Assembly: GCA_020724525.1 (NCBI GenBank)
Contig: DYGU01000004.1
Coordinates: 35,100 to 99,099, forward strand
Direction: 5' to 3'
Source of the DNA: Dehalococcoides mccartyi
GTDB taxonomy: Bacteria; Chloroflexota; Dehalococcoidia; GIF9; DYGU01
Length of the DNA: 64,000 nt
The position numbers and the translations under genes are program-made. The notes under the pieces are model-generated. The model saw nothing but the letters and a program-made list of their open reading frames with translations, made no database searches and had not been told where the DNA came from. Below, in pieces: positions 1 through 59,892 of the stretch. The number at the start of each line of letters is the position of its first letter. The first letter of the stretch is position 1.

Positions 1-417
<417 letters not shown>

Positions 418-1667: not shown

Positions 1668-1672
1668 TTTCA

Positions 1673-1735
1673 CCCCACCAAATCTTCGATTTGGTGGGGA
1701 ACCCCGGTGCCCTAAAAAACAAAGTTTTTCAGGGG
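1673..1735. terminator. Two consecutive GC-clamped hairpins between convergent genes, likely a bidirectional terminator. They belong to a recurring palindromic repeat family.
   Basis: CCCCACCAAATC-TTC-GATTTGGTGGGG (1673-1699) is followed by CCCTAAAAAAC-AAA-GTTTTTCAGGG (1711-1735). The second is a variant of the hairpin at 31463 and 59866. Confidence 0.55.
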
Positions 1736-1748
1736 CGAGAATTCAGAC

Positions 1749-2966: not shown

Positions 2967-2984
2967 TTCTCTTCTCGTTCCTTT

Positions 2985-3413
2985 TTACTCATCCCCCAAA
3001 CAACGAGTAAGAATGGTACGGACTTCATTTTGGTCTGCATAACTGATGCAGCTAAAAATTCGCTTGCCATATTCCTGCTCCGGATTAGGAATGCCAGCAC
3101 GTTCACTCAAGCTTATAAGGTCTTGACGCCGGGCTCCCACAAAAAGAAGAACCGTATCTCCCCCTTGGGCTATCTCACTCTCGACTCGCTGCCATCTGTC
3201 CAGGACTTTTCTTTGATGACTTTTTTGTTGCTGGAAAGTTACTTCAACTTCTACAAAAGCCCTGCGGTTATTTCGCGGGTTCAACAAAATCATATCTGGT
3301 TCCCCCGGGCGATTTTCACGATTTAAGAATTCTATATTATAGCCCAACTCTTCCGCCAACAAAGCTATTTGGATTAGATAGGCTCCATGGCGCTCATCCG
3401 AGGTTACTTCCAT
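2985..3413 (-). CDS. Hypothetical protein. A possible PD-(D/E)xK-like nuclease partner of the adjacent methyltransferase is unverified.
   Basis: The 142 aa ORF lies 15 bp downstream of the methyltransferase on the same strand. It contains GEPD...FVEVEV, reminiscent of a nuclease core but without a clear catalytic Lys. Its GC content resembles the host, unlike the methyltransferase. Confidence 0.4.
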   Translation of the reverse strand: MEVTSDERHGAYLIQIALLAEELGYNIEFLNRENRPGEPDMILLNPRNNRRAFVEVEVTFQQQKSHQRKVLDRWQRVESEIAQGGDTVLLFVGARRQDLISLSERAGIPNPEQEYGKRIFSCISYADQNEVRTILTRCLGDE

Positions 3414-3428
3414 TTTTGCTCCACCTTC

Positions 3429-4886: not shown

Positions 4887-5023
4887 TTCCTAATTCTCTT
4901 CGCTTATACAAGCCTCTTTGTATTCGCCTTTAAATTATTTTACGCTACCTGATGGGCTTTAACAAAGCAATTTTAAGGGATATTTTTAAACCTTTGTTGT
5001 TATTCCACCTCTGATAGCGACAC

Positions 5024-6217
5024 TCACATTATCCAGCCTATTAATTTACTCATAATACTACACCCTTCCACTACAAAAACGCCAGTCCTTTTAGCTTCAA
5101 CTTCGGTAAACCTCTCAGCCCCATTGGGGCTAAACCCCTCTCCCCAGAGTAGAAACGGGACCGGGGCATCGGTGTGGGTCTGAACCTTAATTGGCGTGGA
5201 GTGGTCAGGCATAATGAGCACCCTTAAGTTATCTCCTTGCCAGGAGCGGAGACGACTTACCATCTCCTGGTCAATTCTGTAGATGGTTTCTATTTTGTCA
5301 TCAACAGAACCGGAATGCCCAGCTTCATCTGGAGCTTCCACGTGGACAACCACTAAATCCCGTTCCTTAAGAGCTTCCAGGGCACCCGTTACCTGAGCCA
5401 CATAATCATTGTCCAGACCGTCAGTCACCCCCGGGATATCCAGTACTTCCATTCCCATCATCCGGGCTAAACCGCGGAGAAGGTCAACCCCGGAGGTCAT
5501 AGCCGCCTTTAGTCCATAAACTTGCTTGAAAGGCAGCATATCAGGTATTTTACCACTGCCCCAGAAAAGCCAGACCATAGTTGCCGGAATATCATCCCGA
5601 GCTTTTCGGCTTAAATTCACCGGATGATCTTTAAGCACAGCTTTAGAGCGCTCCATAATCTCTCGCAATAGCTCACTTCCCTTGCCTTTAGGTAAAAATT
5701 CAGCAATAGATTTCCCGGAAATATCATGAGGGGGGGTACAAATAGCCTGAAGGGTTTCTTCTCGCCCTTTTATCTTGCATATATGTCTGTAACTGACACC
5801 AGGATAAAAATGAATGTTTTCATCAGCCAAGCTTTCATTCAAGGCAGCAATCAGAGCCTGAGCCTCCTCAGTACTGATATAACCTGAGCTGTAACTCGAC
5901 ATTTTGCCATCCTGAACCGCTACCAGATTGCAGCGAAAAACCACTTCGCCATCCTCAATAGGAATGCCCATACTTTTAGCCTCAATAGCAGCCCTACCCC
6001 GGTAATAGACTTTCGGGTCATACCCCAGCACCGACATACAGGCACAGGCACTGCTCGGCTCCATTCCCTCGGGCACTGTCCTGACCAGACCAACCACCCC
6101 TTCTTTAGCCAAAGCATCCAGATTTGGTGTCGCAGCTAATTCGAGACAAGTCTTATCCCCCCGGTCAGGCAAAGGTAGACCAGAGGCTCCATCCATTATC
6201 AGAATGCAGTATTTCAC
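5024..6217 (-). CDS. apgM: Cofactor-independent phosphoglycerate mutase, archaeal-type (ApgM family).
   Basis: 397 aa with N-terminal ILIMDGASGLP...TPNLDALAKEG and a metal-binding core (MPDHSTP, VHVEAPDEAGH). Confidence 0.8.
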   Translation of the reverse strand: MKYCILIMDGASGLPLPDRGDKTCLELAATPNLDALAKEGVVGLVRTVPEGMEPSSACACMSVLGYDPKVYYRGRAAIEAKSMGIPIEDGEVVFRCNLVAVQDGKMSSYSSGYISTEEAQALIAALNESLADENIHFYPGVSYRHICKIKGREETLQAICTPPHDISGKSIAEFLPKGKGSELLREIMERSKAVLKDHPVNLSRKARDDIPATMVWLFWGSGKIPDMLPFKQVYGLKAAMTSGVDLLRGLARMMGMEVLDIPGVTDGLDNDYVAQVTGALEALKERDLVVVHVEAPDEAGHSGSVDDKIETIYRIDQEMVSRLRSWQGDNLRVLIMPDHSTPIKVQTHTDAPVPFLLWGEGFSPNGAERFTEVEAKRTGVFVVEGCSIMSKLIGWIM

Positions 6218-6340
6218 TGAGTTCTCCTATTCAGTTCTCCCGACTAATATCGAGAATGAAGCAAGTATAGCAAGAGGCTTATCTCAACTCAATGATTTAG
6301 CTTGCTAACCTGCTTACGAAAGGAATATAATAATTACTAA

Positions 6341-6414
<74 letters not shown>

Positions 6415-6416
6415 TT

Positions 6417-7196
6417 TTATTTTACCCTCTGTTTCGCTTCCTCCCATAGAGCATTCTGCTCATCCAGGGAAAGACTACTGATATTAACACCCCGCTGCCG
6501 GCACATTTCCTCCATATAAGAGAAGCGCTGAACGAAGCGCTGATTAGCTTGCCGCAAAGCCGCTTCCAGGTCCACATTTAAGCGACGACCGATATTCGTC
6601 AGGGTAAACAGCAAGTCGCCAAATTCCCTGGCTATTTGCTCCTGAGTGGGAGCTTGCTTTAATTCGGTTACCTCCTCTTTTAACTTATCCACAATCTCTG
6701 TCACTTTTTCCCAATCAAATCCAACACCCGCCACTCGCTGCTGGATTGACTGGCTGTAAGCCAAAGCCGGCATTTCTTTAGGGACACTATCTAAAAGGGA
6801 CTCCCCGTCTTCTCGTTCTTCCTGTTTTAATGCCTCCCAGTTGACTATCACTTCTCTGGCATCAGTCACTTTTAGCTGACCAAAAATATGGGGATGGCGA
6901 TGGATTAGTTTGGCATTAATGCTCTGAATAACATCTGTAATATTAAATTCATCGGCTTCAGCAGCAATCTGAGCCTGAAAGACAATTTGCATCAGGAGGT
7001 CGCCTAACTCTTCGCATAGCTTGAGCGGATTTTTCTGTTCAATAGCTTCCAGAACTTCATAGCACTCCTCAAGCAAGTGTGTTTTCAGGGAATGGCGAGT
7101 TTGCTGCCGGTCCCAGGGACAGCCTTTAGGGCTGCGCAACCGAGCCATGATCCCCTTTAAGGTAGCAAAGCTACACAAATTCTTTGGAAAAGACAT
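6417..7196 (-). CDS. mazG: MazG-family nucleoside triphosphate pyrophosphohydrolase.
   Basis: 259 aa with two MazG domains ([47 protein letters not shown]). Confidence 0.85.
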
Positions 7197-7229
7197 TCCA
7201 CTCCTTCAGAATGACATAAGACGAAGACT

Positions 7230-8186
7230 TCAGGTTTGGAGCAAGTAGCCAAGGAACTCCCTTTGTCCCCGGATAAACTCCGCTGCCGACATTCGGCGCT
7301 TCCCTTCAATTTGTACCTGACACAGCCCAAGCACACCATCCCCAGTGACTACCCCCACAGGTGTTGGAAAATCAGATGTCAGGGCTATAACTTTGCCCAC
7401 TTCCCCATCTGACCCTTTCAGTATCGGGATTGCCTCCCAAATCTTTAGCCGCCTGCCCTGATACCAGGTATAACAAACTGGCCAGGGATTAAAAGCCCGA
7501 ACCCGTCGCCATATTTCTAAAGCTGATAAGCGCCAATCTATTTGAGCATCTGCCGTAGTTACTCTTTTACTGTAAGTAGCCAAACTGTGGTCCTGTGGCT
7601 GAGGCTTAATTCTGCCCTCAAACCATAAAGGTAGAGTCTCCAAAAGGAGTTCGGCACTAAGTTGAGCTAATTTATCACCCAAAGAACCGGCAGTATCATC
7701 GCCAGAAATGGCTATTTCCCGCTGCCTTAGAATAGGACCGGTATCAAGGCTAGCATCCATCAGCATTATAGAAACACCAGTAACCTCATCGCCTTGAAGA
7801 ATAGCCGTAATAATAGGTGACGGACCCCGATGTCGCGGTAACAAGGAGGGGTGGATGTTAAGACATCTATATGGGGGTAAGTCCAAGACTTCCTTAGATA
7901 GAAGTTGGCCGAAGGCTGCCACCACAATAATATCCGGAGCCAAACTCCTGAGTAACTCCGTTTCCCGGGGCTCCCTCAAGGATTGAGGCTGAATTACCTG
8001 AAGTCCATGACTTGCTGCCAGCTTCTTCAGTGGAGACCAAGTAACCTTTTGCCCCCGCCCGGCTTTTCTATCGGGTTGAGTATATACCGCAACTACCTCA
8101 TAGGAACTATCAATCAAAGACTTCAAACTGGGGAGAGCAAATTCCGGCGTGCCCATAAAAACAATACGGTTTGCCATCGTTCTCAT
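7230..8186 (-). CDS. fmt: Methionyl-tRNA formyltransferase.
   Basis: 318 aa with N-terminal RIVFMGTPEFALPSL and the formyltransferase core (NIHPSLLPRHRG). Confidence 0.9.
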   Translation of the reverse strand: MRTMANRIVFMGTPEFALPSLKSLIDSSYEVVAVYTQPDRKAGRGQKVTWSPLKKLAASHGLQVIQPQSLREPRETELLRSLAPDIIVVAAFGQLLSKEVLDLPPYRCLNIHPSLLPRHRGPSPIITAILQGDEVTGVSIMLMDASLDTGPILRQREIAISGDDTAGSLGDKLAQLSAELLLETLPLWFEGRIKPQPQDHSLATYSKRVTTADAQIDWRLSALEIWRRVRAFNPWPVCYTWYQGRRLKIWEAIPILKGSDGEVGKVIALTSDFPTPVGVVTGDGVLGLCQVQIEGKRRMSAAEFIRGQREFLGYLLQT

Positions 8187-8400
8187 AATATTTTACTCAA
8201 CCCTTGCCTTATGTCAAAAACCCCCTTGACAACCATTATTAGCCTCGGTGTTAAACTTTAAAATTGTTTAGACCAGCTTCCCAGCTCATTATTCTCTTCC
8301 AATTATTTTTCGTCTAAATATGGGTAAACAATGTTTCTTCATCGGTTTGGGTAATTTCTGGTATCGGTAGTATAGTTTTGGCAAGGGAAGGAAAGCAAAT

Positions 8401-9756
8401 TTGAGGTCGGCACAAGAAATCTGGGAAACAGCCCTCGGGCAACTCCAAGTTCAAATCAGCAAACCAAATTTTGATACTTGGCTTAAAGATACTATCGGTT
8501 TGAATTACCACAATAACTACTTCACCATCGGCGTCCCTAATGCCTTTGTCGGCGAATGGCTTAATAACCGCTGGCGTTCTTTAATCACTAAGACATTAGT
8601 CGGAATTATAGATAAAGATACCGAAATTCAGTTTTCGGTAAATACCAGCAACCTATGTAAAACTCCATACACTTCTATCCTGCAAGCCGATGGTGGGCTT
8701 AGCTCCCGTGCCATATCACAAGCACTTTCTCCACCAAGACTTAATCCAAAATATACGTTCAATACCTTTGTCGTCGGCAATTGTAACCGGTTTGCTTACT
8801 CGGCTGCTTTACAGGTAGCCGAAAAGATGCCCGAGGAGTACAATCCGCTATTTATTTATAGCAGTACTGGTCTCGGCAAAACCCATTTATTGCACGCTAT
8901 CGGACATATAACCATGAATAATGGGCTAAGAACTCTCTACCTTACTGCTGAACAATTCACCAATGAGTTCGTAAAGTCTCTTAAGGAAGGAAAAAATGGG
9001 AGCTTCCGGAGCAAATTTAGAGCTGTCCAGGTATTACTCATGGACGATATCCACTTTTTCAACGGCAAAGGGCAAATCCAGGAATGTTTCCTCCACGTCT
9101 TTAATGAACTTTATCATGCTGACACACAAATTGTTCTTACCAGTGACCGGTCGCCTAAAGCAATAGCTCTCCTTAATAATAAACTACGGTCAAGATTTGA
9201 GTGGGGGCTGGTAACTGTTATTCAGTCACCAGAAATAGATACGCGCTTAGCCATCATTAGAGCCAAGGCTGAAGAAAGAGGGCTAAAAGTGCCACCCGAA
9301 GTTTTAAAGTTTTTAGCTGAAAAATGCCAGGGAAACATCAGAGAGCTGGAAGGAGTCCTAAATCGTGTTGTCGCCTATGCCCAAGTGCATAATACAAGTC
9401 TCAACCTTTGCTTAGCTGCCGAAGCCCTGGCTAAAATAACCACAGAAACTCAAAATGTAATAACTCCGCCAAAACACATAATACAGCTTGTAGCTCGTTA
9501 CTTTGGCTTAACTCCAGAGCTACTAAGGGGAAGAAAAAGAGACCCGAAGACCAGTCTGGCTCGCCAGATTGCCATTTACCTCCTCCGAGAAGAAAGCTGC
9601 TGCACCCTGTCTCAAATAAGCCGTGAATTTGGCAGCCGAGACCATTCCACAATTTTCTACAGCCATTTCAAAATAAAGGAGAGACTGAAAACTGAGCCGA
9701 AACTTCGCAGCCAAATAGCAGAAATACTCCGGGCACTCCAGTTCACTCAAGAATAG
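8401..9756 (+). CDS. dnaA: Chromosomal replication initiator protein DnaA (TTG start).
   Basis: 451 aa: N-terminus IWETALGQLQVQISKPNFDTWLKDT, AAA+ Walker A GLGKTHLLHAIG, Walker B LLMDDIHF, and the C-terminal DnaA DNA-binding domain. Confidence 0.95.
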   Translation: MRSAQEIWETALGQLQVQISKPNFDTWLKDTIGLNYHNNYFTIGVPNAFVGEWLNNRWRSLITKTLVGIIDKDTEIQFSVNTSNLCKTPYTSILQADGGLSSRAISQALSPPRLNPKYTFNTFVVGNCNRFAYSAALQVAEKMPEEYNPLFIYSSTGLGKTHLLHAIGHITMNNGLRTLYLTAEQFTNEFVKSLKEGKNGSFRSKFRAVQVLLMDDIHFFNGKGQIQECFLHVFNELYHADTQIVLTSDRSPKAIALLNNKLRSRFEWGLVTVIQSPEIDTRLAIIRAKAEERGLKVPPEVLKFLAEKCQGNIRELEGVLNRVVAYAQVHNTSLNLCLAAEALAKITTETQNVITPPKHIIQLVARYFGLTPELLRGRKRDPKTSLARQIAIYLLREESCCTLSQISREFGSRDHSTIFYSHFKIKERLKTEPKLRSQIAEILRALQFTQE

Positions 9757-9926
9757 TAATTAAACTTTTGAAAAATTTTGGAAAGGCTGTGGATAGCCCT
9801 TTTATTTGATTTTGGATTCTCTCCTTAATAAGAATTGCTTCCTAAATGTCATTAATAATATTATTAGTTAAATTATTAGTACTTTAGTTATTATAAAACT
9901 ATAAAAATAATAAGTTTTGAGCGATA
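9757..9926. promoter_or_regulatory. Candidate oriC segment: one DnaA-box-like site plus an AT-rich repeat tract that could be a DNA-unwinding element.
   Basis: TGTGGATAG at 9789-9797 matches the DnaA box TGTGGATAA at 8 of 9 positions. 9840-9926 is very AT-rich, with repeated ATTATTAGT-like units. Flanking gene orientation switches here (minus-strand genes upstream of dnaA, plus-strand from dnaA). Confidence 0.35.
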
Positions 9927-10526
9927 ATGAATATAGGCATTTTTGGTGGTACTTTTGACCCTGTCCACTCAGGGCATTTGTTTGTAGCTGAGGAAGTTAG
10001 AATTCAGCTGAAGTTGGGTTCTGTTTTATTTATACCTGCTGGGCAGCCCTGGCTTAAGGTTGATAGAGTTATTGCGCCAGCAAGACACCGTATAGCTATG
10101 CTGAATTTAGCTATTGCTTCCAACCTCGAATTTCAGCTATCTACTATTGAAGTTGAGCGACCCGGTCCATCTTATACCGTAGATACTATTCGTTCACTTC
10201 AAGCTCAAATGGGTAGCCAGGCTAAATTTCTGTTCATTTTGGGCTGGGACAGCCTTGATGAGTTACCTCAATGGAAAGAGCCTTCTGAACTAACCAAAAT
10301 GTGTAAATTTATAGCGATCCCTCGCCAGAACCACCCAAAGCCAGACCTTGACTCTTTAGACAGGGCTATCCCTGGGGCAGCGGCAAGTATTATCTTGCTT
10401 GATATGCCTATTATTGGTATTAGTTCTTCCGAAATCAGGAAGCGTGTTGCTGAGGGTAAATCTATTCGCTATTGGGTACCTGAAAAAGTGGCAGAATATA
10501 TAAAGGAGCACAGGTTATATCAATAG
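9927..10526 (+). CDS. nadD: Nicotinate-nucleotide adenylyltransferase.
   Basis: 199 aa with the GIFGGTFDPVHSGHL nucleotidyltransferase motif. Confidence 0.9.
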   Translation: MNIGIFGGTFDPVHSGHLFVAEEVRIQLKLGSVLFIPAGQPWLKVDRVIAPARHRIAMLNLAIASNLEFQLSTIEVERPGPSYTVDTIRSLQAQMGSQAKFLFILGWDSLDELPQWKEPSELTKMCKFIAIPRQNHPKPDLDSLDRAIPGAAASIILLDMPIIGISSSEIRKRVAEGKSIRYWVPEKVAEYIKEHRLYQ

Positions 10527-10527
10527 T

Positions 10528-10920
10528 ATGAATTGTCGTAAGTTAAAGAAAGTATTTCCTATTTTGTCGGGCATCCTGTTAACGGGGTGTGATTTATTAG
10601 CACCAGCACCTCAGCAGTCTCAGCCCCCTCAGCCGCCTCTGTCTGTACCTCCTCCAGTGCCTTCAATTCTTAAGGAAGTTGTTTCTTCCAAAGAGCCATT
10701 TATACGACAGTTTAGATGGCGACATGGTTCCAAACCTTATACTTGGGAACTACAAATACCGAATGAACTTTATACTTACTATAGGCAGAAACCCAGACCT
10801 CCCACAAAGAACTACTCAGTTTATGTGACTGATCCGTATGATGACCAATACATAGGAATGTTTGTAAAGTCGATTAAGGAAGCTGCCATAAGAGACAAAA
10901 TGGGTGTGGGGAGACTATAA
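10528..10920 (+). CDS. Proline-rich lipoprotein, function unknown.
   Basis: Signal peptide with lipobox LLTGC, followed by a PQQSQPPQPPLSVPPPVP tract. Confidence 0.5.
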   Translation: MNCRKLKKVFPILSGILLTGCDLLAPAPQQSQPPQPPLSVPPPVPSILKEVVSSKEPFIRQFRWRHGSKPYTWELQIPNELYTYYRQKPRPPTKNYSVYVTDPYDDQYIGMFVKSIKEAAIRDKMGVGRL

Positions 10921-11003
10921 ACTTTGTTATCTCCTTTGTACAGAGCCTCCCTTATACCTCTGATTCAGTTACAGCTGGGTTTGATGAGTATCCGCGGTAT
11001 CCT

Positions 11004-11565
11004 ATGGAGACATTAGTCGATTATGGTGGTGATTGCGAAGATACTTCTATCCTGATGGCAGCAATTCTCACTGCAATGGGATATGGAGTTGTCTTAATTG
11101 GACTGCCACGCCATATGGCAGTGGGAGTTTTAGGTGGCGAAGGCATTTATGGAAGTTATTATGAACACGAAGGGAAGAAATATTTCTATTTGGAAAATCG
11201 GGCAAATTCCGGAGGAATACAAAGGCAAGGGTGCTTACATCTATGACATCGAACCAATTCCAATTCTAACTCATAAATGGAAAGCAGTAATTGAGGCTTA
11301 CCAAGTAAAATTAACTGTCACTATCCAGAATTTGGGCACTGCCACTGCCTATAATGCGCACATCTTTGCTGGTTTTGATGCTGGTGGAGCGATGGTGTGG
11401 AACGCGAAACAGTCTGAACCTTTTACACTCAGCCCTAATTACAAAATAACTCAAACCATATATCTTGATATACCAAGGGGAAAACATACTCGGCTACTAA
11501 TTCAAATTGTGCATAATGGGTATAGTGTTGATCAAAGCCATTCAAGTTGGTTTAATACCAATTAG
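11004..11565 (+). pseudogene. Transglutaminase-like cysteine-peptidase-domain gene, frameshifted.
   Basis: Two overlapping ORFs in different frames (11004-11246 and 11134-11565). The first carries a transglutaminase-like core (YGGDCEDTSILMAAIL...HMAVGV). The reading frame is open upstream of the only ATG. A +1/-1 shift near 11140-11240 is needed to join the halves. Confidence 0.45.
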
Positions 11566-11577
11566 GGCAAACTTTGT

Positions 11578-13512
11578 CTAAATGTCTAAGTTTCTCACGT
11601 TTCGGGCATGGGCTTGGATGAAGTTCCTGCGGGGTGGCACTTCATCGCCCATCAACATGCGGAAGACCCAGTCTGCAGTTATCGCATCTTCTATTTCCGC
11701 CCGGAGTAAAGTTCGAGTAGTTGGGTTCATAGTTGTTTCCCAGAGTTGTTCTGGGCTCATTTCTCCAAGTCCTTTGTAGCGCTGGATTTCGAAACGGTCG
11801 CCCTTTAATTCCTTAAGCTTTGCCTCTTTTTCTTTTTCAGAATAGACCCAGAAGTGCTGTTTCCCGGCTTGAATACGGTAAAGTGGTGGCTGGGCGATGA
11901 AAAGATGACCCTGGTTGATTAGCCCCACCATATGGCGATAGAAAAAGGTGAGCAAAAGGGTCCGAATATGAGAGCCGTCCACATCAGCATCAGTCATAAT
12001 GATTATAGTGTGATACCGGAGTTTGGAGAGGTCCAGTTGGTCGCCGGTTCCAGTTCCTAAAGCTGTGATAATTGCCCGAATTTCCTCCTGCTCAAATATC
12101 TTATCTTTAGAAGCCTTTTCTACGTTGAGGATTTTGCCTCGTAAGGGGAGGATAGCTTGAAAACGGCGGTCTCGACCTTGTTTGGCTGAGCCACCAGCAG
12201 AGTCGCCTTCAACTATAAATAGTTCGCTCCGCCTCGGGTCTTTTTCGGAGCAATCAGCTAATTTTCCGGGCAGTGTAGCTGTTTCAAAGGCGCTTCTCTT
12301 GAAGATAAGATCGCGAGCCTTTCGGGCAGCTTCCCTGGCTTTAGCTGTAATGAAACATTTATCAATAATTGTTTTCGCCTCGTTAGGGTGCTGTTCCAGA
12401 TAAGTTGATAAGCCATCACTCACTGTCGCTTCTACATGAGTTTTTATTTCGGGGTTACCTAATTTGGCTTTAGTTTGACCTTCAAACTGGGGTTCGGGAA
12501 TTTTGACACTGATAATAGCTGTCAATCCCTCTCGAACATCTTCCCCTATTAGGTTAGGGTCAGCATCTTTAATGAGTTTGTTTTTTCGGGCATAGTCATT
12601 AAGGACACGGGTCAGAGCCGAGCGAAAACCAGTAAGATGACTGCCACCATCTACGGTGTTGACACAGTTGGCAAAACTGAAAATAGTCTCATTAAAACCA
12701 TCATTATATTGAATAGCTGCTTCAACCATAGTACTGTTGATTACCCGGGATAGATAGATAGGCCGAGAATGAAGAACAGTTCTCCTTTTGTTGAGACGTT
12801 GGACAAAACTGGCTATTCCTCCCTCGAAGTAGAAAGTTGCCTCTTGGTCACTTCGTTCGTCAATAAGAGTTAGTTGGAGATTCTTATTTAAGTAGGCTAA
12901 TTCTCGGAGACGCTGACAAATAGTGTCAAAATCGTAATTAAGCTCGCCAAATATTTCCCAATCGGCTAAAAAGGTGACGGTTGTCCCGGTATTATTGGCG
13001 TCACCAACTTCTTTTACTTCACCAGTGGGAATACCATGACGATATTCCTGCCGGTAATACTTACCTTGGCGTCTAACTTCAACTTTAAGCCACGAAGACA
13101 GGGCATTTACTACTGAAGCACCCACTCCATGTAAGCCGCTGGATACGGTGTAAGTATGTCCTCCAAATTTGGCGCCAGCATGGAGGCGAGTCATTACTGC
13201 TTCCAGGGCTGAGGTGTTTGTGGCTGCGTGGTAGTCTACAGGTATGCCTCGTCCATTATCACTAACGGTAACAGAGCCATCCTTGTGGATGATTACTTCG
13301 GTGTGGTCACAGTAACCAGCCATAGCTTCGTCTATACTGTTATAGACTATTTCATAGACGAGGTGATGTAAGCCACGCTGGTCAGTACTTCCAATATACA
13401 TACCGGGACGCCGTCTTACTGCTTCCAGCCCGTCTAAAACACGGATATCTTCGGCAGTATAGGTGCTTTCTGGTTGTCCCCAAGTATTAGCAGTGTCTTG
13501 TGCCATAGTCAT
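11578..13512 (-). CDS. gyrB: DNA gyrase subunit B.
   Basis: 644 aa with a GHKL ATPase N-terminus, a TOPRIM domain ([19 protein letters not shown]), and a C-terminal tail. Confidence 0.95.
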
Positions 13513-25576: not shown

Positions 25577-26920
25577 ATGGACTATAAACAAGCGGAAGAC
25601 TATATTCTCAGCTTTACTGATTATGAGAAAATCTCGGGTATTCTTTATACTTCGGCTAATTATGATTTGGGGCGGATGGATGAACTCCTGGAACCCTTGG
25701 GCAATCCTCACCTCTCAGCCCGGACGGTCCATATAGCCGGCACTAAAGGGAAAGGGAGTACTGCAGCTATGATTGCCCAGGTTCTGACCACTTCTGGCTA
25801 TAGGACAGGTCTCTATACTTCCCCCCACCTCCATACCTTGAGGGAGCGGATTAGAATTGATGGTGAATTAATTTCCGAGGTTGACTTTGTTTCTCTGGTT
25901 GAGATTCTTCAGCCAATAGTGGCAGAAGTAAATAATAAAGCTTCTTATGGACAACTGACCACCTTTGAAATCCTGACGGCTCTGGCTTTTGCCTATTTTG
26001 CTTGGGAAAAAACGGATTTTCAGGTACTGGAAGTGGGTTTAGGCGGGAGACTGGATGCTACAAATGTGGTTAAACCTGAAGTCTGTGTTATCACTTCTAT
26101 TAGTCTGGATCATACCGAGGTTTTGGGAGATACTATAGCCAAGATAGCTATGGAAAAAGCCGGAATTATTAAGGAGGGATGTCTTGTGGTCAGTGCTCCT
26201 CAGCCGGCAGAAGCTAAAGAGGTAATCAAACAGGTCTGCCGGGAAAAAGGAGCCAGATTAATTCAGGTGGGGGAGGATATAACCTGGCACAAGGCAAACT
26301 CAGACCTCAGCCATCAGTCTTTCCGGGTTAATAGCAAAGCCAACAGTTATTATCTCACCATTCCCCTTCTCGGCGACCACCAGTTGGAAAATGCGGCTAA
26401 TGCCGTAGCCGTGTTAGAAGCTTTGGCTTCTTCGGGGGCTAAAATCTCAGCCGAGGATATTAAAAGAGGTTTAGAGTGGGTGACCTGGGCGGGTCGTCTC
26501 CAGATTCTCAGCCATCAACCCCTCCTGGTGGTTGATGGGGCTCACAATGCTTACTCAATGAAGAAATTAATAGAGGCAGTCCGTCACCATTTTGACTATG
26601 ACCGATGCTTTGTCATCTTCGGCACTTCTTGCGATAAGGATATTTCTGGTATGGTTAGTGAGCTTATTTCCTTACCTTGTCATATTTTGGTCACCCGTTC
26701 CGCTCACCCCCGGGCGGCATCTCTTTCTGTGGTGACTCAAGAATTCGCCAATCACGATATTAGAGTAGATGTGGCAGAGAATACTGCTATCGCCTTGTCT
26801 CGTCTTTTAACTTTAGCCGGTCCTGAGGACCTTATTCTGGTAACTGGCTCTCTCTTTGTAGTTGCTGAAGCTATAGATTATGTCACCAAATATCTTCCCT
26901 TGCCAGGTAAAAAAGTTTAA
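25577..26920 (+). CDS. folC: Folylpolyglutamate synthase / dihydrofolate synthase.
   Basis: 447 aa with a Mur-ligase P-loop (IAGTKGKGSTAAM), HLHTLRERI, and a C-terminal Mur ligase domain. Confidence 0.9.
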   Translation: MDYKQAEDYILSFTDYEKISGILYTSANYDLGRMDELLEPLGNPHLSARTVHIAGTKGKGSTAAMIAQVLTTSGYRTGLYTSPHLHTLRERIRIDGELISEVDFVSLVEILQPIVAEVNNKASYGQLTTFEILTALAFAYFAWEKTDFQVLEVGLGGRLDATNVVKPEVCVITSISLDHTEVLGDTIAKIAMEKAGIIKEGCLVVSAPQPAEAKEVIKQVCREKGARLIQVGEDITWHKANSDLSHQSFRVNSKANSYYLTIPLLGDHQLENAANAVAVLEALASSGAKISAEDIKRGLEWVTWAGRLQILSHQPLLVVDGAHNAYSMKKLIEAVRHHFDYDRCFVIFGTSCDKDISGMVSELISLPCHILVTRSAHPRAASLSVVTQEFANHDIRVDVAENTAIALSRLLTLAGPEDLILVTGSLFVVAEAIDYVTKYLPLPGKKV

Positions 26921-26943
26921 TGAGTTGTTGAGTAATTATTGCC

Positions 26944-27088
26944 TGTTAGTGCGAGGGGCGTTAGCCCCGAAGCAATACCAAGAGATTGCCACGCTTCTTA
27001 CACCCAGCCGAATCGTAGATTCGGCTGGGAACCCGGGGTCCCCACAAAATCATAGATTTTGTGGGGTGTTCTTCGCTCGCAATGACAG
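26944..27088. repeat. MITE-like element A: terminal inverted repeats enclosing two GC-clamped hairpins.
   Basis: TIRs TGTTAGTGCGAGG (26944-26956) and CGCTCGCAATGACA (27075-27088). Internal hairpins CCCAGCCGAATC-GTA-GATTCGGCTGGG and CCCCACAAAATC-ATA-GATTTTGTGGGG. It shares a CAATACCAAGAGATTGCCACGCTT core with element B. A further hairpin GCAGGGCGACC-TTTTAA-GGTCGCCCTGC lies at 27130-27157. Confidence 0.7.
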
Positions 27089-27212
27089 AATGGGGTTAGT
27101 GAACAATCTCAAAGTTTAATGGCGACCTTGCAGGGCGACCTTTTAAGGTCGCCCTGCCCGACATTAGTAAAAAACCTCAAGAGTAATAAAAATTAAGGAG
27201 AGGAGGTGACTA

Positions 27213-27485
27213 ATGGTCGAGCAGATAGGGTATAAAATCATCGGCACCGTAACTGGTATTAAGGGGGAGTGTAGCTGGGGGCACAAAGTCGGCGATAAGT
27301 TTGAACTCAGTGGCTTTAATAGTGCCGGTCTTTGTGGCTTTTTCTATCACGATGCTTTTCCCTACATTATTATGCTCCAGTTCAGCGGCAGTTTCCCCGA
27401 AGAATGGGGACACCCCGATGTTGTAGAACTTGAATGTATGGATAGAGCTGTTGCCGTTAAGCTGGAGTTACGCCGGCTAAGATAG
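27213..27485 (+). CDS. Small Cys/His-rich conserved protein (TIGR04076-like family).
   Basis: 90 aa with GECSWGHKVGDKFE...GLCGFFYHDAFPYI. A strong RBS (aaggagaggagg) sits upstream. Confidence 0.5.
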   Translation: MVEQIGYKIIGTVTGIKGECSWGHKVGDKFELSGFNSAGLCGFFYHDAFPYIIMLQFSGSFPEEWGHPDVVELECMDRAVAVKLELRRLR

Positions 27486-27502
27486 AGCCCCCAGAGTTGT
27501 CC

Positions 27503-28704
27503 TTAGCTTAAGCCATATTTCTGGGCTGTCTTTCTAAAACCTGTTAGAGAGCCTTCTATGACTCTATCTTCGACACAGAAGGCGATGCGAAAATAGCCAG
27601 GGGCTCCAAAAGCAGTGCCGGGCACTACCAGTACCAGGTTCTTACTGAGCTCATCAGCAAACTCCAGGTTGTCTACCGGTGTCTTGGGGAACATATAAAA
27701 GGCGCCCTCGGGCTTCACTACGGGGTATCCTATCTGAGTCAGCTCCTGGTAGAGGAAGTCCCTTTTGCGTTGATATTCACCAATATTGACACAGGCTCGC
27801 TGTAGTTTACCGACTATTCGCTGCATTAAAGCCGGGGCGTTAACAAAGCCCAGAGCCTGGTTGCAGAAGCCAATAGCGGCTTCCAGTTCCCCACCTTCGT
27901 TACATTGCGGATTTACGGCTACATAACAATGCGCTCCCCTGCCAGAGAAAGGTCTTTGGAGTGGGGGGTAACGGCTATGGTCCGGGGATGGTAATAGAAT
28001 ACATAAGGGCACTTCACTCCGTCATAGACAAGCTTGCGGTAAGGTTCATCACTGAGGATAAAGATCCGGGTGCCCAAGCGTGATTCCTTAGCTTGGATTA
28101 TTTGTCCCATTTGTCGCAGGACATCCTCCTTATAAACGACGCCGGTGGGATTGTGGGGTGAATTTATTATTACCTTGGTGCGATGGGTGATGGCTCTTTC
28201 CAGAGCCTTTAGGTCGGGGTTAAAGTTAACACCAGAAGGTACTACTTTGGCAATCCCTGACTGATTGGCAATATAGAGCAAGAACTCAGGAAAGTAAGGG
28301 GCAAAGGCAATGGCTTCGTCTCCCTGGCTGAGCAGGGCTCTTAAGGTAATTGATATTCCACCCCCAGCACCTATGGACATAATAATATCCTTAGCCGTGA
28401 ACGGTAGCCCTGTTTCTGATGTCAGGTACTGGGCAATTTCAGCCCTCGTTTCCGGATAGCCGGCATTTACCATATACCGGTGCATACCTGAAATAGGGTG
28501 GTTGGCTAATTTCTGTAGCTGTTGGTAGAACTCTTGAGGGGGTTCCAGTATCGGATTACCCAAGGAAAGGTCAAAGACTTTGTCCTCACCATACTGCTTC
28601 TTTAATGCCACCCCCTCCTCAAAGGCTTTCCGGATGAAGCTACCTCGTTCTATTTGTTGCTGAATTTCTCGAGAGATTACCGAAGTCTTATTAGAAACTT
28701 TCAT
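27503..28704 (-). pseudogene. Class I/II PLP-dependent aminotransferase, interrupted by a frameshift.
   Basis: The N-terminal ORF (27919-28704, carries the PLP-Lys region TPHSKDLSLAGERIV) and the C-terminal ORF (27503-28012) overlap in different frames. The total span of 1202 nt is not a multiple of 3. Joined, they give a typical aminotransferase of about 400 aa. Confidence 0.7.
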
Positions 28705-28892
28705 TTGTCACATCCATAAAGTTTATTAAATAAGGAACCCTCCCGCGCGGGAGGGTTCCTTTAGTTTTCCTTTTAACTTGTAACTTGGGTTATATTTCTC
28801 TGGTTACGCAAACACCCCCTAAGCGGACTTAGACCACAGTCTAAAGAAGTAATAAACACTCTCCTTGACTGAGGGTGTTTACTAATTCCTAA

Positions 28893-29093
28893 CCGTCATT
28901 GCGAGGAGCATAGCGGTTGCGAGGCATAGCCGAAGCAACTCAGAGTGAGATTCCTCGCTTACGCTTCGGAACAAGCTCCGCAATACCAAGAGATTGCCAC
29001 GCTTCACGCCCCACAAAATCAAAGATTTTGTGGGGGCCCCGGGTTCCCAGCGAAATCTAAGATTTCGCTGGGTATGCTTGGCTCGCAGTGACA
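28893..29093. repeat. MITE-like element B, related to element A but with its internal hairpin block inverted and a duplicated about 30 nt submotif.
   Basis: TIRs CCGTCATTGCGAGG (28893-28906) and GCTCGCAGTGACA (29081-29093). Hairpins CCCCACAAAATC-AAA-GATTTTGTGGGGG and CCCAGCGAAATC-TAA-GATTTCGCTGGG occur in the opposite order to element A. Shared core CAATACCAAGAGATTGCCACGCTT. Confidence 0.7.
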
Positions 29094-29178
29094 ACTGGGC
29101 AATTGCTAAACGGTCTCCTTGACAAAGAGCACTCTAAAGACTTATTCTGTTTTTTGATTTTCTTCAGGAAAGGAGGTA

Positions 29179-30071: not shown

Positions 30072-30854
30072 ATGGGCAAATTAGATGGTAAAGTTGCTGT
30101 CATTACTGGTTCTGGGCGAGGTATAGGTAAGGCTATTGCTATTCTTTTTGCCCGAGAAGGGGCGACAGTGGTAATTAATGACATTGATATTGCTCCAGCC
30201 CAGGAGACGGTTACAGAAATACAAGCTTTTGGCGGCAAGACCGCTGTTTGTGTTGCCGACATCACCAAAGCCGAGGAATCTCAAAAACTTATGGATACAG
30301 CCGGGGAAAAATTTGGCAAACTTGATATCCTGGTTAATAACGCCGGAATTACCAGGGATGCCTTGATTCCGAGGATGACCGATGCTGGGTGGGATACCTG
30401 TATTAATATTAATTTAAAGGGGACTTTTAACTGTATCCGAGCAGCTTCTAAATATATGATGAAGGATGGGCACAACGGGAGGATAATCAATGTCACTTCG
30501 GTAGCTGGGCTTATGGGTAATGTTGGGCAGATTAATTATTCGGCAGCTAAAGCCGGTATTATCGGGTTGACTAAGACGGTGGCTAAGGAATGGGCAAGCT
30601 ATGGCATTACCTGTAATGCCATAGCTTATGGCTTTGTGGATACTCGCTTGACCCGGGAAAAAGAGACCGGAGAGGAGGTTATGGGGAAGAAGGTGGGCAT
30701 ACCCAAGAAAATCAGGGATATGATGATAATGCAACTTGCCGGCAAGGTAATGACTCCTGAAGATGCAGCTAAACCAGTCCTTTTCTTAGCCTCTGAGGAT
30801 GCTGCCTTCATCACCGGTAACGTCCTTAATGTCACCGCCGGCTTGTATATGTAG
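30072..30854 (+). CDS. fabG: 3-oxoacyl-ACP reductase (short-chain dehydrogenase/reductase).
   Basis: 260 aa with [16 protein letters not shown], and a catalytic YSAAK motif. Confidence 0.85.
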
Positions 30855-30929: not shown

Positions 30930-31330
30930 GCTTAGCTATGAACTGGGCTTAGCTCCTTAACAAACCAGTTAGCGACTACGGCAGTAACCGGTGTCCACCC
31001 AACCAGGCTCAGCCCTATGGCAACAATAACCCTATAGAGGAAGTAGAATTGCCACTGAGTAGTAGCCAGACTCACAAAGCCAGTCCCCCGCCTATAAGGC
31101 AAGCTCTACCGGGAAAACCAGCCTCGGTCCAAATCTATCCACAAGACCACCGGCTACTGGCGCCACCAAGCAATAAACGACAATGGTAATGGAGAACATC
31201 AGTGCCGTGCTGCCGCGCCCCCAGCCGACCTCTTCCACAATAGCCGGATAGAAGACTGAGAAGGTGTTCCGGATAGAATAGCCGAGCACTAAGGTGATAA
31301 AAGCAACACCTGCGACAATCCAGCCATAAA
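30930..31330 (-). pseudogene. Degenerate MFS-transporter gene remnant (N-terminal about 130 aa, with frameshifts).
   Basis: Reverse-strand translation gives an MFS N-terminus (GWIVAGVAFITLVLGYSIRNTFSVFYPAIVEEVGWGRGSTALMFSITIVVYCLVAPVAGGLVDRFGPRLV), then a stop. It continues in other frames (SLATTQWQFYFLYRVIVAIGLSLVGWTPVTAVVANWF) before terminating. There is no intact ORF of transporter length. Confidence 0.55.
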
Positions 31331-31462
31331 AGAGGCGTGGTCTCTTTTAAGCTATTCTTTGTCTTTTCCCGGTGCACCATCAGTTCAGGTATGAAGTATG
31401 ACACAATGGATATCTGTTTGGCAAGACATCCCATAATGGCATGCCCTTAGGCTTAGAAAAAA

Positions 31463-31489
31463 CCCCTGAAAAACGAAGTTTTTCAGGGG
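31463..31489. repeat. Palindromic hairpin repeat, copy 2.
   Basis: CCCCTGAAAAAC-GAA-GTTTTTCAGGGG followed by GCCCCGAATTT. It lies upstream of tldD. Confidence 0.6.
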
Positions 31490-31623
31490 GCCCCGAATTT
31501 GCAGACGGGTTGAGCATAGGTTTACTTTGAGAAAGGCATAGGGACTTTTTCAGTAATTTCTTAGAAGCTCCAATTTTCCTTGTCTTTGGTCCTTGGTAAG
31601 ACTACAATAATAGTTACTTTGGT

Positions 31624-39331: not shown

Positions 39332-40237
39332 ATGGAATATAGAGCACCCATTGAAACCTATGCGGGTAAGGTCCGAGAGGTGGTAATTGGTAAGGGGAGT
39401 AAAGCTATGAAGATTGGGGGGGAAAGTATTCTCCCTCTTCATTTTTTTGAGGGCTCTATTGAGAACCCCCCTCGACTTGTTTTAGAGGTCTATGATATGG
39501 AGCCAGACGATTGGGCAGGGGCAGTGCTTGAGCCTTATAAAGATGTTGTTTCCGACCCGGTAAAATGGGCACAGAAATGTTTAGATTTTGGTGCTGACCT
39601 TGTCTGCCTTAAGCTAATGAGTACTGACCCGGGCGGGGAAAATGCACCGGCAGAGGCAGTAGCAGCCCTTACCAAAAAAGTAGCCACCACCATTAACACC
39701 CCCCTCATTGTTTATGGCTCGGGGGATGAGACCAAAGACATTGAGGTGTTAACTAAGGTGGCTGAAGTCTGCGCTGGAGAAAACCTCCTCTTAGGTCCAG
39801 CGGTTAAGGAAAATTATGAGCCGATATGCAAAGCCGCTTTGGACTATGGGCATTGTCTTATTGCCCAGACCCCCATAGATATAAACTTGGAAAAGGAACT
39901 AAATATAAAACTGATGAAGTCCTTTCCACCGGAGAGAATAGTTATTGACCCCTTAAGCTCGGCTTTAGGCTATGGTATTGAATACAGCTTCAGCATAATG
40001 GAAAGGACCAAACACATTGGCATTATGTTTAAGGATGCCACCATGCAGATGCCTATAATCGCCGACCTGGGTAAGGAATCGTGGAAAACCAAAGAAGCTA
40101 AAGCCAGTGAAAAGCAGGGTATATTATGGGAAAGCATTGCGGCTTTAACTTTTCTTTTAGCCGGGGCTAATATTTTGGTCTTGCGTCACCCCGAAACCCT
40201 TAAGTTAATTAAGGAAGTAATTACGGGGAAAATTTGA
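39332..40237 (+). CDS. acsD: Corrinoid/iron-sulfur protein small subunit (AcsD / CdhD-like TIM barrel).
   Basis: 301 aa, adjacent to acsE. A degenerate partial copy of its 3' end recurs at 45682-45817. Confidence 0.75.
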   Translation: MEYRAPIETYAGKVREVVIGKGSKAMKIGGESILPLHFFEGSIENPPRLVLEVYDMEPDDWAGAVLEPYKDVVSDPVKWAQKCLDFGADLVCLKLMSTDPGGENAPAEAVAALTKKVATTINTPLIVYGSGDETKDIEVLTKVAEVCAGENLLLGPAVKENYEPICKAALDYGHCLIAQTPIDINLEKELNIKLMKSFPPERIVIDPLSSALGYGIEYSFSIMERTKHIGIMFKDATMQMPIIADLGKESWKTKEAKASEKQGILWESIAALTFLLAGANILVLRHPETLKLIKEVITGKI

Positions 40238-42603: not shown

Positions 42604-43445
42604 TAAGGATGGAGGATGTAAAGGCAAAGGCAGAGGAGAGAAGGTGTCCACTGCAGAAAGCAATTGTCTTCATAGAGGAGTTTTTAAATGAACCACTGTG
42701 TGGAGAATGTCTTCCGTGCACACTTGGGAGTCAGGAACTTAAGATAAGGTTACAGAAGATTGCCGACGGTAAAGGAACTCAATTAGATATCGATGCTATA
42801 GATAAAATTACCGGACATATGCTTGAGATATCAAGATGTAGGAAAGGTATGGATACAGCGAGATTCATAATAGACTCTACAAAGGAAGGCTCATTTAAAG
42901 GACATCTTGAGGGGGTGTGTAATGAAAAAGAATGCCTGTCACTTATTATGTACCGGATTATACCTGAGAAGTGCGTAATGTGCGGCACTTGTCAAGATAT
43001 TTGTAAAGAGAATGCAATAATCGGGGAAAAGAAAAAGCCTTTAAGCTACCAGCCTATTCAGATAAATGCCAGGAAATGCAGAAGTGAAAGGGGTTGTAAT
43101 GAGTGCGTAAGAGTATGTCCTACAGGAGCAATAGAGGTGATAGAGGTAGAAGGTAGGTACTTGCCTTTTGAGATAAGTCAGAAGAGATGTACAAGATGTG
43201 ATGAATGTATAAAGGTGTGTCCTGTTTCAGGAGCAATAGGGGTAATAGAGATAGCTGGTTTAAGGGTAGTACCAATTGACTGGTTAGATATTTCAAAAGC
43301 AATAGGGGTAGCAGATATAGGCTTCCGACCTTTTGAGATAGTTCAGAAGAGATGCACCACCAAATGTGGTGAGTGTATAAAGGGATGTCCCTCAGGAGCA
43401 ATAGAGGTGGTAGATATAAAAGAGCAAGTAGCAGTTGGCAGTTAG
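42600..43445 (+). CDS. Polyferredoxin with an N-terminal NuoF-C-terminal-like [4Fe-4S] module and tandemly repeated [4Fe-4S] motifs.
   Basis: CGECLPCTLGS-x39-C reproduces the NuoF N3 cluster spacing. It is followed by CVMCGTCQDICKENA and a series of CxRCDECIKVCP / CTTKCGECIKGCP units. The 3' third contains an about 130 bp tandem DNA duplication (43140-43400). AT-rich, with AGA/ATA-biased codon usage. Confidence 0.7.
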   Translation: MIRMEDVKAKAEERRCPLQKAIVFIEEFLNEPLCGECLPCTLGSQELKIRLQKIADGKGTQLDIDAIDKITGHMLEISRCRKGMDTARFIIDSTKEGSFKGHLEGVCNEKECLSLIMYRIIPEKCVMCGTCQDICKENAIIGEKKKPLSYQPIQINARKCRSERGCNECVRVCPTGAIEVIEVEGRYLPFEISQKRCTRCDECIKVCPVSGAIGVIEIAGLRVVPIDWLDISKAIGVADIGFRPFEIVQKRCTTKCGECIKGCPSGAIEVVDIKEQVAVGS

Positions 43446-45511: not shown

Positions 45512-45681
45512 TACTGGTGGGGTTCCTAATAGGAGTATCCAACAGGATGCCACAAGAGTTTAGGTGGATTCTTATTGATGATGCTATCCAGGTATGGTCA
45601 ATTGGCTTGGATGGGGAGAGAAGCTTAAATAAGGGATAAATGCTTAGTATTGTTGACCTTGTCAAAGATAGCATGACACAC

Positions 45682-45817
45682 ATGCCTATAATTGCTGACC
45701 TGGGCGGGAATGCTGGAAAGCCAAAGAAGCCTTCTTTTAGTCGGGGCTAACATTTTAGTATTACGGCACCCAGATAACTACAAACTAATTAAGGAAGTGA
45801 TTCAGCAGAAATTTGAT
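45682..45817 (+). pseudogene. Vestigial duplicate of the acsD 3' end (non-coding remnant) immediately upstream of cdhA.
   Basis: CATGCCTATAATTGCTGACCTGGG...CCAAAGAAGC...CTAATTAAGGAAGTGATT...AAATTTGAT matches acsD 40046-40237 (ATGCCTATAATCGCCGACCTGGG...CTTAAGTTAATTAAGGAAGTAATTACGGGGAAAATTTGA). It carries an internal deletion and stop codons. Confidence 0.6.
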
Positions 45818-59730: not shown

Positions 59731-59865
59731 TAAAAAATCTCAAAAGTGGACTGTTTAAACTTGAAAACGGACTGTTAAAGGCTGAAAAGTAAACTCCGAT
59801 GGTACATTCCTCAGTAATCAACCTCATTTACAATATTTGCCGGTGGGTAGTGGCTAATCGGGGCC

Positions 59866-59892
59866 CCCTGAAAAACGAAGTTTTTCAGGGGT
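59866..59892. repeat. Palindromic hairpin repeat, copy 3. Likely the speE terminator.
   Basis: GGGGCC + CCCCTGAAAAAC-GAA-GTTTTTCAGGGG, followed by TTTTAAT. The flank is inverted relative to copy 2. Confidence 0.6.

Follow-up and report, generated by a model that had tools for sequence, protein, structure and literature searches.

We analysed a 64,000-nt stretch of the Dehalococcoides mccartyi genome (contig DYGU01000004.1, positions 35,100 to 99,099; hereafter the window) that carries two small repeat elements, A (26944-27088) and B (28893-29093). An initial annotation had taken them for copies of one transposable element of the miniature inverted-repeat kind (MITE) with a centre that can flip. 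We found two unrelated repeat families instead, one nested in the other. A and B probably belong to the family of hairpin repeats associated with the Ssn nucleases, as non-coding copies in decay and relatives outside Neisseria of the NTS/dRS3 (NIME) repeats, and they hold within them a doublet resembling repetitive extragenic palindromes (REP). The picture of a single flippable MITE was abandoned because the hairpin block is also found alone and because homologues of both A and B exist that have no such cassette.

Ssn proteins (cd10448) are single-domain, site-specific GIY-YIG endonucleases that bind NTS-type hairpins in single-stranded DNA only, on one strand only, and cut just upstream; GTC, the three bases next to the palindrome on its 5' side, weighs most for cutting (Chenal et al. 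2025, PMC11893778). Repeats termed Ssn-related motifs (SRMs) flank ssn genes in many phyla, in a repeat-ssn-repeat arrangement that resembles an insertion sequence (IS), and the system modulates natural transformation in Neisseria (PMC11893778). Strand-specific binding and cleavage has been demonstrated for the Neisseria and Wolbachia enzymes only; Chloroflexota and Bacteroidota are absent from the main text of that paper.

In A and B the frame is made of two inverted arms, GTCATTGCGAG…GCAATCTC / GAGATTGCCACGCTTCGCTCGCAATGAC, which form a doublet. A scan for the 16-mer GAGATTGCCACGCTTC, with one genome per species, found at least 119 loci, and the arm counts given here are among the 119 matches listed. 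The 16-mer is followed by the right arm end CGCARTGAC in 95 of them; the complete 28-mer GAGATTGCCACGCTTCGCTCGCAATGAC, in which the 16-mer leads directly into GCTCGCAATGAC, is exact in 69; and 41 have a partner arm in inverted orientation (GTCATTGCGAGGAGCgnAGCGACGnnGCAATCTC) 10-35 nt upstream. The hosts belong to Chloroflexota, Nitrospirota, Bacteroidota, Bacillota, Patescibacteria, Gamma- and Deltaproteobacteria, Campylobacterota, Acidobacteriota, Atribacterota, Planctomycetota and several candidate phyla, and include cultured Mucilaginibacter and Flavobacteriia. Arms also occur on plasmids (Methylosinus, Methylocystis, Halomonas, Aulosira) and on faecal phage contigs; a scan of a viral collection for the 26-nt core shared by A and B gave no match. 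The family of elements with conserved ends that had been predicted is therefore real, with further copies both on the contig (C and D, described below) and in about a dozen phyla. A full-text literature search with the DNA words and with the spurious peptide strings that they encode returned only primers and unrelated matches.

The lead to a nuclease gene came from inspection of tandem arrays of half-arms. These arrays have a period of 18-42 nt and were seen in L035 (1459-1690), L071 (1565-2296) and L110, with a comparable array of the hairpin unit in L239 (981-1100); the half-arm arrays are satellite-like expansions beside the nuclease gene. Arms identical to those of the window directly flank a gene for a single-domain GIY-YIG protein of 96-100 aa (PF01541) in L035, in L071 (a Dehalococcoidia locus) and in L080 (from Mucilaginibacter), and in L035 the gene sits between left arms and a right arm. 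Including L259, the repeat-ssn-repeat arrangement with window-identical arms was seen in four loci, all from other genomes. A search for enriched neighbour genes among open reading frames (ORFs) of at least 100 aa missed this association, because the nuclease ORFs measure 96-100 aa and are present in only three loci.

Homologues elsewhere have a similar setting. All five plasmid-borne homologues inspected (Planktothrix, Spirosoma, Rhizobium, Novosphingobium, Azospirillum) have GTCAT…ATGAC doublets on both sides; the ends are those of the window-type arms and the interiors are lineage-specific. In the viral collection, doublets within 700 nt accompany 19 of 44 close homologues, as against one of 17 distant GIY-YIG genes and three of 300 random windows. 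The 94-aa SsnA homologue of N. gonorrhoeae lies among dRS3/NTS repeats (GTCATTCCCGCGCAGGCGGGAATC) and is 47% identical to the L071 protein and 42% identical to the L035 protein; true dRS3 is visible in the comparison locus L318. On the Azospirillum lipoferum 4B plasmid AZO_p3 (L256), an Ssn-family gene with its flanking doublets stands between sufB and sufC of an essential operon, a clear example of a unit behaving like an inserted selfish cassette.

The window arms resemble the SRM/NTS repeats in design (PMC11893778): an arm starts with (T/C)GTC-AT…, contains a short palindrome and ends in …AT-C, and arms of 20-50 nt have a defined orientation, number in the hundreds in intergenic DNA and stand on both sides of a single-domain GIY-YIG gene of about 95 aa. 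From this oriented GTC-AT…AT-C design and from the gene association in other genomes, the window arms would be a divergent kind of Ssn repeat. They also recall NIME (dRS3-RS-dRS3; PMC1797815), which are how such doublets look in Neisseria and likewise have two inverted short palindromic arms about a variable spacer, stand singly or in arrays, form mosaics with other repeats and are intergenic. However, NIME are stated to be specific to Neisseria, neither the dRS3 consensus ATTCCCN8GGGAAT nor its 20-bp inverted repeat ATTCCCNNNNNNNNGGGAAT is present in the window arms (ATTGC-N12-18-GCAAT), and spacers here are often only 5-35 nt.

Several points weigh against the assignment to Ssn repeats. An iterative profile search found no ssn/GIY-YIG gene in 72 kb (the window and 8 kb upstream), and among the listed arm loci the gene stands at only three of 119. 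The published SRM pattern, HGTCWYN(0-2)YYVSBRHN(0-5)WNVSBRGN(0-2)RNCYNB, picks up NTS as well as the arms from Azospirillum and Rhizobium, but neither A, B nor the canonical GTCATTGCGAG arms; its sole match in the window (47046) is unrelated. The arm centre, ATTGC-N12-18-GCAAT with a mini-hairpin of the GCGAAGC type, replaces ATTCCCGCG-N3-CGCGGGAAT and has no 6-7-bp G+C hairpin like that of NTS. The 28-mer is nearly identical in about a dozen phyla, which is unlike the lineage-specific variation of SRMs. Furthermore, the orientation of the nested hairpin doublet in B admits a second history (below). Since the pattern fails and the 72 kb hold no ssn gene, we file the window arms as a divergent member of the family, not as a proven substrate in this organism.

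The anatomy of the two elements agrees in most respects with what was first annotated. Their ends are shared (TGTTAGTGCGAGG...CTCGCAATGACA in A, CGTCATTGCGAGG...CTCGCAGTGACA in B). The core, GCAATACCAAGAGATTGCCACGCTTC, is identical in both, with 0 such matches expected by chance, but measures 26 nt (26972-26997 and 28980-29005) and not 24. Each element has two perfect GC-clamped hairpins with a 12-bp stem and 3-nt loop, CCCnnnnnAATC-NNN-GATTnnnnnGGG, at 27003 and 27040 in A and at 29009 and 29046 in B; none is expected in shuffled sequence. The 64-nt block formed by the two hairpins is indeed inverted in B, with 56 of 64 positions identical in inverted and 43 in direct comparison (the inverted arms 27002-27069 and 29006-29073 are 87% complementary). 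The CCCAGC… stems of A and B differ by two changes, both fully compensated, so that palindromy has been maintained by selection or templated repair. The tandem duplication reported for B exists in its left arm (TTGCGAGGaGCATAGCgg / TTGCGAGG-CATAGCcg) but spans about 18 nt instead of about 30; it is a conserved subfamily feature, present too in the Dehalococcoidia locus L082.

Outer inverted arms lengthen each element by some 22-25 nt per side, to 26922-27110 for A and 28870-29117 for B. This outer-arm type (…TTAGTAAACAnnCTC) recurs in L054, L082 and L147 and in copies C and D. Folded as single-stranded DNA, both elements are multibranched and far more stable than shuffled sequences (A, -45 kcal/mol, z = -8.0; B, -54.9 kcal/mol, z = -5.9). 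The GTC-A(T/C)TGC start is kept in the left arm of B and, read on the minus strand, in both right arms; the left arm of A has GTT-AGTGC, and in it GTCATTGC has mutated to GTTAGTGC, ahead of the loop ACCAA (26977-26981). The parts are collected in Table 1.

Table 1. Parts of elements A and B and related hairpin units in the window (coordinates are window positions).
Feature	Coordinates	Strand	Remarks
Direct repeat copy 1, AAAGTTTAATG	26912..26922	.	Holds folC stop codon; identical to 27111-27121; abuts A left outer arm
A left outer arm, GAGTTGTTGAGTAATTATTGCC	26922..26943	+	Inverted match to 27088-27110; pairs in DNA fold
A left Ssn-type arm, degenerate (TGTTAGTGCGAGG-GGGGCGTTAGCCCC branch-GAAGCAAT)	26944..26976	+	Homologous to L054 TGTCATTGCGAGGGGCAAAGCCCCGAAGCAAT
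A right arm 5' half (GAGATTGCCACGCTTC)	26982..26997	+	Exact 16-mer of the genome scan
A nested insert	26998..27074	+	TTACA + hairpin 27003-27029 + linker AACCCGGGGT + hairpin 27040-27066 + TGTT + CTTC
A right arm 3' half (GCTCGCAATGACA)	27075..27087	+	Sequence
A right outer arm (GAATGGGGTTAGTGAACAATCTC)	27088..27110	+	Inverted repeat; pairs in fold
Direct repeat copy 2, AAAGTTTAATG	27111..27121	.	Perfect 11-nt match to copy 1
B left outer arm (TGAGGGTGTTTACTAATTCCTAACC)	28870..28894	+	Inverted repeat; pairs with 29094-29117 in fold
B compound left part, GTCATTGCGAGG arm + inner small doublet (GAAGCAAC…GAGATTCCTCGCTTACGCTTCGGAAC)	28895..28979	+	Colinear with L082
B core GCAATACCAAGAGATTGCCACGCTTC (left-arm end + loop + right arm 5' half)	28980..29005	+	Identical to A
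B nested doublet, inverse orientation	29006..29080	-	ACG + hairpin 29009-29035 + GCCCCGGGTT + hairpin 29046-29072 + TAT + GCTTG
B right arm 3' half (GCTCGCAGTGACA)	29081..29093	+	Sequence
B right outer arm (ACTGGGCAATTGCTAAACGGTCTC)	29094..29117	+	Pairs in fold; ends at conserved MaoC-like operon promoter
Stand-alone doublet (CCCCACCAAATC-TTC-GATTTGGTGGGG AACCCCGGTG CCCTAAAAAAC-AAA-GTTTTTCAGGGG)	1673..1735	+	Fills spacer between convergent genes
Single hairpin unit + GCCCCG tail	31463..31495	+	Same family
Single hairpin unit + tail (CGGGGC on + strand)	59859..59891	-	Directly after stop codon of minus-strand gene

The nested block is a family of its own. Its unit is a 27-nt perfect hairpin with the conserved tail GGGG-N-CCCCG, and a metagenome scan for CCCCNNAAAAWCNNNGWTTTTNNGGGGNCCCCG found at least 120 loci, to whose listed matches the figures for the unit refer. 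The hairpins noted in the window at 1673, 31463 and 59865 belong to this family as had been proposed, except that the first is a doublet and not a single hairpin. Tail-to-tail doublets like those of the window (…GGGGACCCCGGGTTCCC…) occur also in L215 and L163. The contigs range from 38 to 76% G+C and come from soil, sediment and gut. On high-GC contigs the unit has a stop codon on one side and a start codon on the other, and short direct repeats containing TGA are frequent there (at least 5 nt in 11 of 31). On low-GC contigs, the arms of another perfect hairpin enclose 30 of 73 copies, compared with 4% in shuffled pairings; in sediment genomes the unit sits in the loops of AAGAGAGGC…GCCTCTCTT hairpins. 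No match to the unit was found in the viral collection or in the plasmid search, and no gene, small ORFs included, is enriched near the 120 listed loci.

In A, B and C the insertion point is the same, between CACGCTTC and GCTCGCAATGAC at the centre of the right-arm palindrome ATTGC-N12-GCAAT. Imperfect 5-nt repeats flank the insert (GCTTC/tCTTC in A, GCTTC/GCTTg in B), and the final CTTC of the A insert repeats the CTTC of the target. The site contains GCTTCGC, complementary to d(GCGAAGC), a mini-hairpin of very high stability. CTTCG/CGAAG is the commonest loop among 22 uninterrupted host hairpins, yet is found in only five, and GCTTCGC as a specific target of the unit is only suggestive.

Comparison of copies indicates that the frame is old and that the two-hairpin block was inserted later, since the doublet is widespread and cassette-free homologues exist: L054, L100 and the orthologous site in L245 for A, and for B the Dehalococcoidia genome CG2_30_46_19 (L082), which matches its whole compound left part. 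The orthologous folC spacer is empty in a relative with 81% identical FolC (L242), where folC and the small ORF overlap as TAATG, and is filled with a 75-nt doublet without cassette in a relative with 84% identical FolC (L245). About 8 kb upstream of the window, copy C (L249, 18886-19042) is a composite with one hairpin and half the linker at the same site; its left junction is as in A (CTACA in place of TTACA). Copy D (about 21096-21165 of L249), also upstream on the contig, is a plain doublet with no insert, and the stretch holding C and D has a further hairpin pair. The insert is thus present in three of the four frames in 72 kb of this genome, against none of the approximately 119 listed frames elsewhere, which indicates that the composite was copied as a unit in this lineage. 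Hairpins of this family were likewise absent from within the arm at all 119 listed 16-mer loci; in other phyla the mid-position of the arm holds other short inserts, including a hairpin in L036.

The right half of B, with its unusual ACCAA loop, is identical to A over 26 nt, whereas in C three positions are different. One insertion, then copying, then inversion of the nearly symmetrical block in an ancestor of B is therefore the most economical history. A second insertion at the same site in B may also account for the pattern, and is the other history mentioned above.

In the mechanism that we favour, the element consists of two inverted arms about a short spacer, (T/C)GTC-ATTGC…GCAAT-CTC and its complement GAG-ATTGC-CACGCTTCGCTC-GCAAT-GAC(A/G), with lineage-specific outer inverted arms outside these Ssn-type arms. 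By analogy with Neisseria and Wolbachia, the nuclease would bind the single-stranded arm on one strand and cut just upstream, the doublet offering one site per strand. A second, unrelated element would then have been inserted in the centre of the right arm (GC|TTC|GC) of several copies in this lineage, namely a REP-like doublet in which two perfect hairpins of 27 nt stand tail to tail, (hairpin)GGGG-N-CCCCGGGTT-(hairpin), and the composite would itself have been copied to give A, B and C. The orientation in B would be a fixed difference between old paralogues, produced by one inversion in situ or by re-insertion of the near-symmetrical doublet, and not a working switch. A and B are probably poor or dead nuclease substrates, because the insert splits the right arm and the left arm of A has no GTC-ATTGC. 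Their remaining role would be passive, as strong cruciform- or hairpin-forming DNA in intergenic spacers.

A wider proposal can be put forward only tentatively. CCCC(N2)AAAA(A/T)C-NNN-G(A/T)TTTT(N2)GGGG-N-CCCCG may be an undescribed mobile hairpin that crosses lineages and prefers single-stranded palindrome centres, a repeat-within-repeat parasite that splits nuclease sites and probably disables them, and the GTCATTGCGAG arms may be a pan-phylum class of Ssn substrates with a specificity of their own, overlooked by the published SRM pattern.

Among other explanations, a role in RNA is unlikely. The repeats would act within transcripts as terminators, 3'-end stabilisers or small RNAs, which fits their intergenic position, the perfect stems with compensated changes, and the location of the 1673 doublet and the 59865 unit, in the gap of a convergent gene pair or immediately behind a stop codon; nor did any sampled doublet lie between divergent genes. 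But the hairpins have no U-tracts, B is located, like the unit at 31463, in a divergent or promoter region, and the orientation of doublets relative to flanking genes is random (12 the same and 13 opposite to the upstream gene). Rfam searches of the window and of 18 loci with canonical copies, at both gathering and permissive thresholds, returned only tRNAs. Tandem half-arm arrays such as those of L035 and L071 would be senseless as RNAs, and RNA is ignored by the partner enzyme that has been characterised (PMC11893778). The hairpins between convergent genes may have a side effect on transcript 3' ends. A CRISPR array, an integron attC site, a riboswitch and a small RNA were also ruled out as identities by the spacers of 5-35 nt, the lack of a GTTRRRY box, the lack of an Rfam match and the lack of strand bias.

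We consider it quite unlikely that both families are REP/REPIN sequences multiplied by a RAYT, an IS200/IS605-like tyrosine HUH transposase. The hairpin doublet does share much with REP, BIME and REPIN-RAYT systems (PMC3116915, PMC3733652): perfect palindromes of about 27 nt, tail-to-tail inverted doublets alongside singlets, intergenic position, BIME-like mosaic nesting and compensated stems. Furthermore, the top strand of A and B (right of the replication origin, + orientation) and the same strand of C (left of it, opposite orientation) all lie on the template of the lagging strand, whichever side of dnaA the copy is on. However, the hairpin base has no GTAG or CGTC tag, which belongs to the definition (PMC3733652), and has instead the conserved tail GGGG-N-CCCCG; no Y1-transposase-like (RAYT) gene was detected near the 120 listed hairpin loci; and REPs are usually lineage-specific, unlike a hairpin found over so wide a G+C range. 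For the frame arms, the partner gene is a GIY-YIG nuclease and not a RAYT. A REP/RAYT mechanism may apply to the hairpin doublet only.

A classical MITE, by which A and B would be deletion derivatives of an IS with a DDE transposase and TG…CA ends, mobilised in trans and making target-site duplications, is very unlikely. The ends TGTCATTGC…GCAATGACA are of the TG…CA type, orthologous sites are empty or filled, CTTGAC stands on both sides of B, and a perfect 11-nt direct repeat surrounds A with its outer arms. Like MITEs such as Correia elements, the repeats are small, non-coding and intergenic, have terminal inverted repeats and can adjoin promoters. Consistent target-site duplications, however, were not found: none of the 41 canonical doublets has an abutting direct repeat of 4 nt or more (mean 0.76 nt, versus 1.0 in controls), and the lengths in this genome disagree (11 nt for A, 6 for B, none for C). 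No parent IS came to light either, since the search for an autonomous IS found no transposase ORF between solo arms and none is enriched nearby; the sole gene recurrently enclosed by arms is the 96-100-aa GIY-YIG nuclease, and the arms are themselves hairpins, unlike those of MITEs. The frame appears not to come from a classical transposase IS, its arms being of the kind that flank Ssn genes. The 11-nt repeat, AAAGTTTAATG, duplicates the folC stop codon and has no equivalent at B or C; it may be a duplicated target or may be there by chance.

Phase variation by a two-hairpin block that flips in situ and alters the expression of neighbours is highly improbable: the block does have opposite orientations in A and B within identical 26-nt and 13-nt flanks, and B abuts the promoter of a MaoC-like operon, but the sequence and orientation of B are identical in three independent assemblies from different samples (the 102.8-kb contig of JGI metagenome 3300029892 to which the window belongs, the Logan assembly L250 from another run, and the NCBI metagenome contig L251; assemblies are consensus sequences, which rare variants may escape), the A and B blocks are only 87% identical, with eight of 64 positions different, among them the compensated stem changes, as expected of old separate copies, no recombinase gene is adjacent, and the bounding inverted repeats measure only about 3 nt around a near-symmetrical block whose orientation carries little information.

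The Ssn family was described in 2025, and the link to it gives a name to abundant sequences and supplies a testable biochemical partner. It would extend the Ssn-repeat system to Chloroflexota, Bacteroidota, Patescibacteria and other phyla, through an arm type that the published motif does not detect, and the new enzyme/site pairs that it brings up are candidates for single-strand-DNA tools. The nesting suggests that a repeat family can settle in the recognition hairpin of another family and probably put it out of action. Of moderate interest are the near-identity across phyla of an arm type outside the published motif and the recurrent placement of hairpin within hairpin. Such repeats also break metagenome assemblies and yield spurious 'RFARND / LAMT / EIATL'-type ORFs in many uncultured lineages. 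An independent assembly of the same organism (L002, Logan contig from SRR5011275) stops within A, at …CTTCTTACACCCAG, an instance of fragmentation of short-read assemblies by these repeats.

The chromosomal replication origin is probably inside the window, since dnaA (about 8401-9756, + strand) has gyrB and gyrA nearby (window 1-12000) and a negative GC skew becomes positive at about 8-12 kb. A and B are some 17-20 kb to the right of this origin. Between folC (25577-26920), whose product is closest to proteins from Chloroflexi/Dehalococcoidia MAGs, and a conserved Cys-rich ORF of 90 aa (27213-27485), the spacer is partly taken up by A. B lies between the 5' end of the frameshifted aminotransferase gene (27503-28704, minus strand) and the MaoC-like operon. 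The bracketing of the Cys-rich ORF and the aminotransferase gene by A and B was correctly annotated; the aminotransferase has a single frameshift, and its two ORFs align with an intact orthologue of 397 aa over residues 2-256 and 258-397. The operon has a conserved promoter, TTGACA-18-TATTCT, at 29119-29148, which starts two bases past the outer arm of B; the native sequence resumes at CTTGACAAA, common to L244, L246 and L247, and the recorded MaoC-like gene has a TTG start at 29185. Beyond this position of B against the promoter, the nested doublet is of no consequence for the physiology of the flanking genes.

Other repeats in the window are distinct from both families. Two perfect hairpins in the spacers at 28732-28761 and 27130-27157, one of the form AAGGAACCCTCCC-gcgc-GGGAGGGTTCCTT with a T-rich tract after it and conserved at the orthologous site in L242, the other of the form GCAGGGCGACCT-ttta-AGGTCGCCCTGC, look like ordinary terminators or members of yet other hairpin families. 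A perfect palindrome with a 14-bp stem, AAGCTATGGCATTA-cctg-TAATGCCATAGCTT (30596-30627), lies inside the coding sequence of a FabG-like short-chain dehydrogenase and is unrelated to A and B or their insert. Adjoining the hairpin unit at 31463, a frame resembling a major facilitator superfamily transporter (30932-31434, minus strand) is split into several short ORFs and is a probable second pseudogene. Internal direct repeats of about 30-60 nt at 43095-43424, and the segments 40031-40234 and 45664-45814, which are 76% identical and 5.6 kb apart, are probably repeated protein domains and paralogous genes with no relation to A and B.

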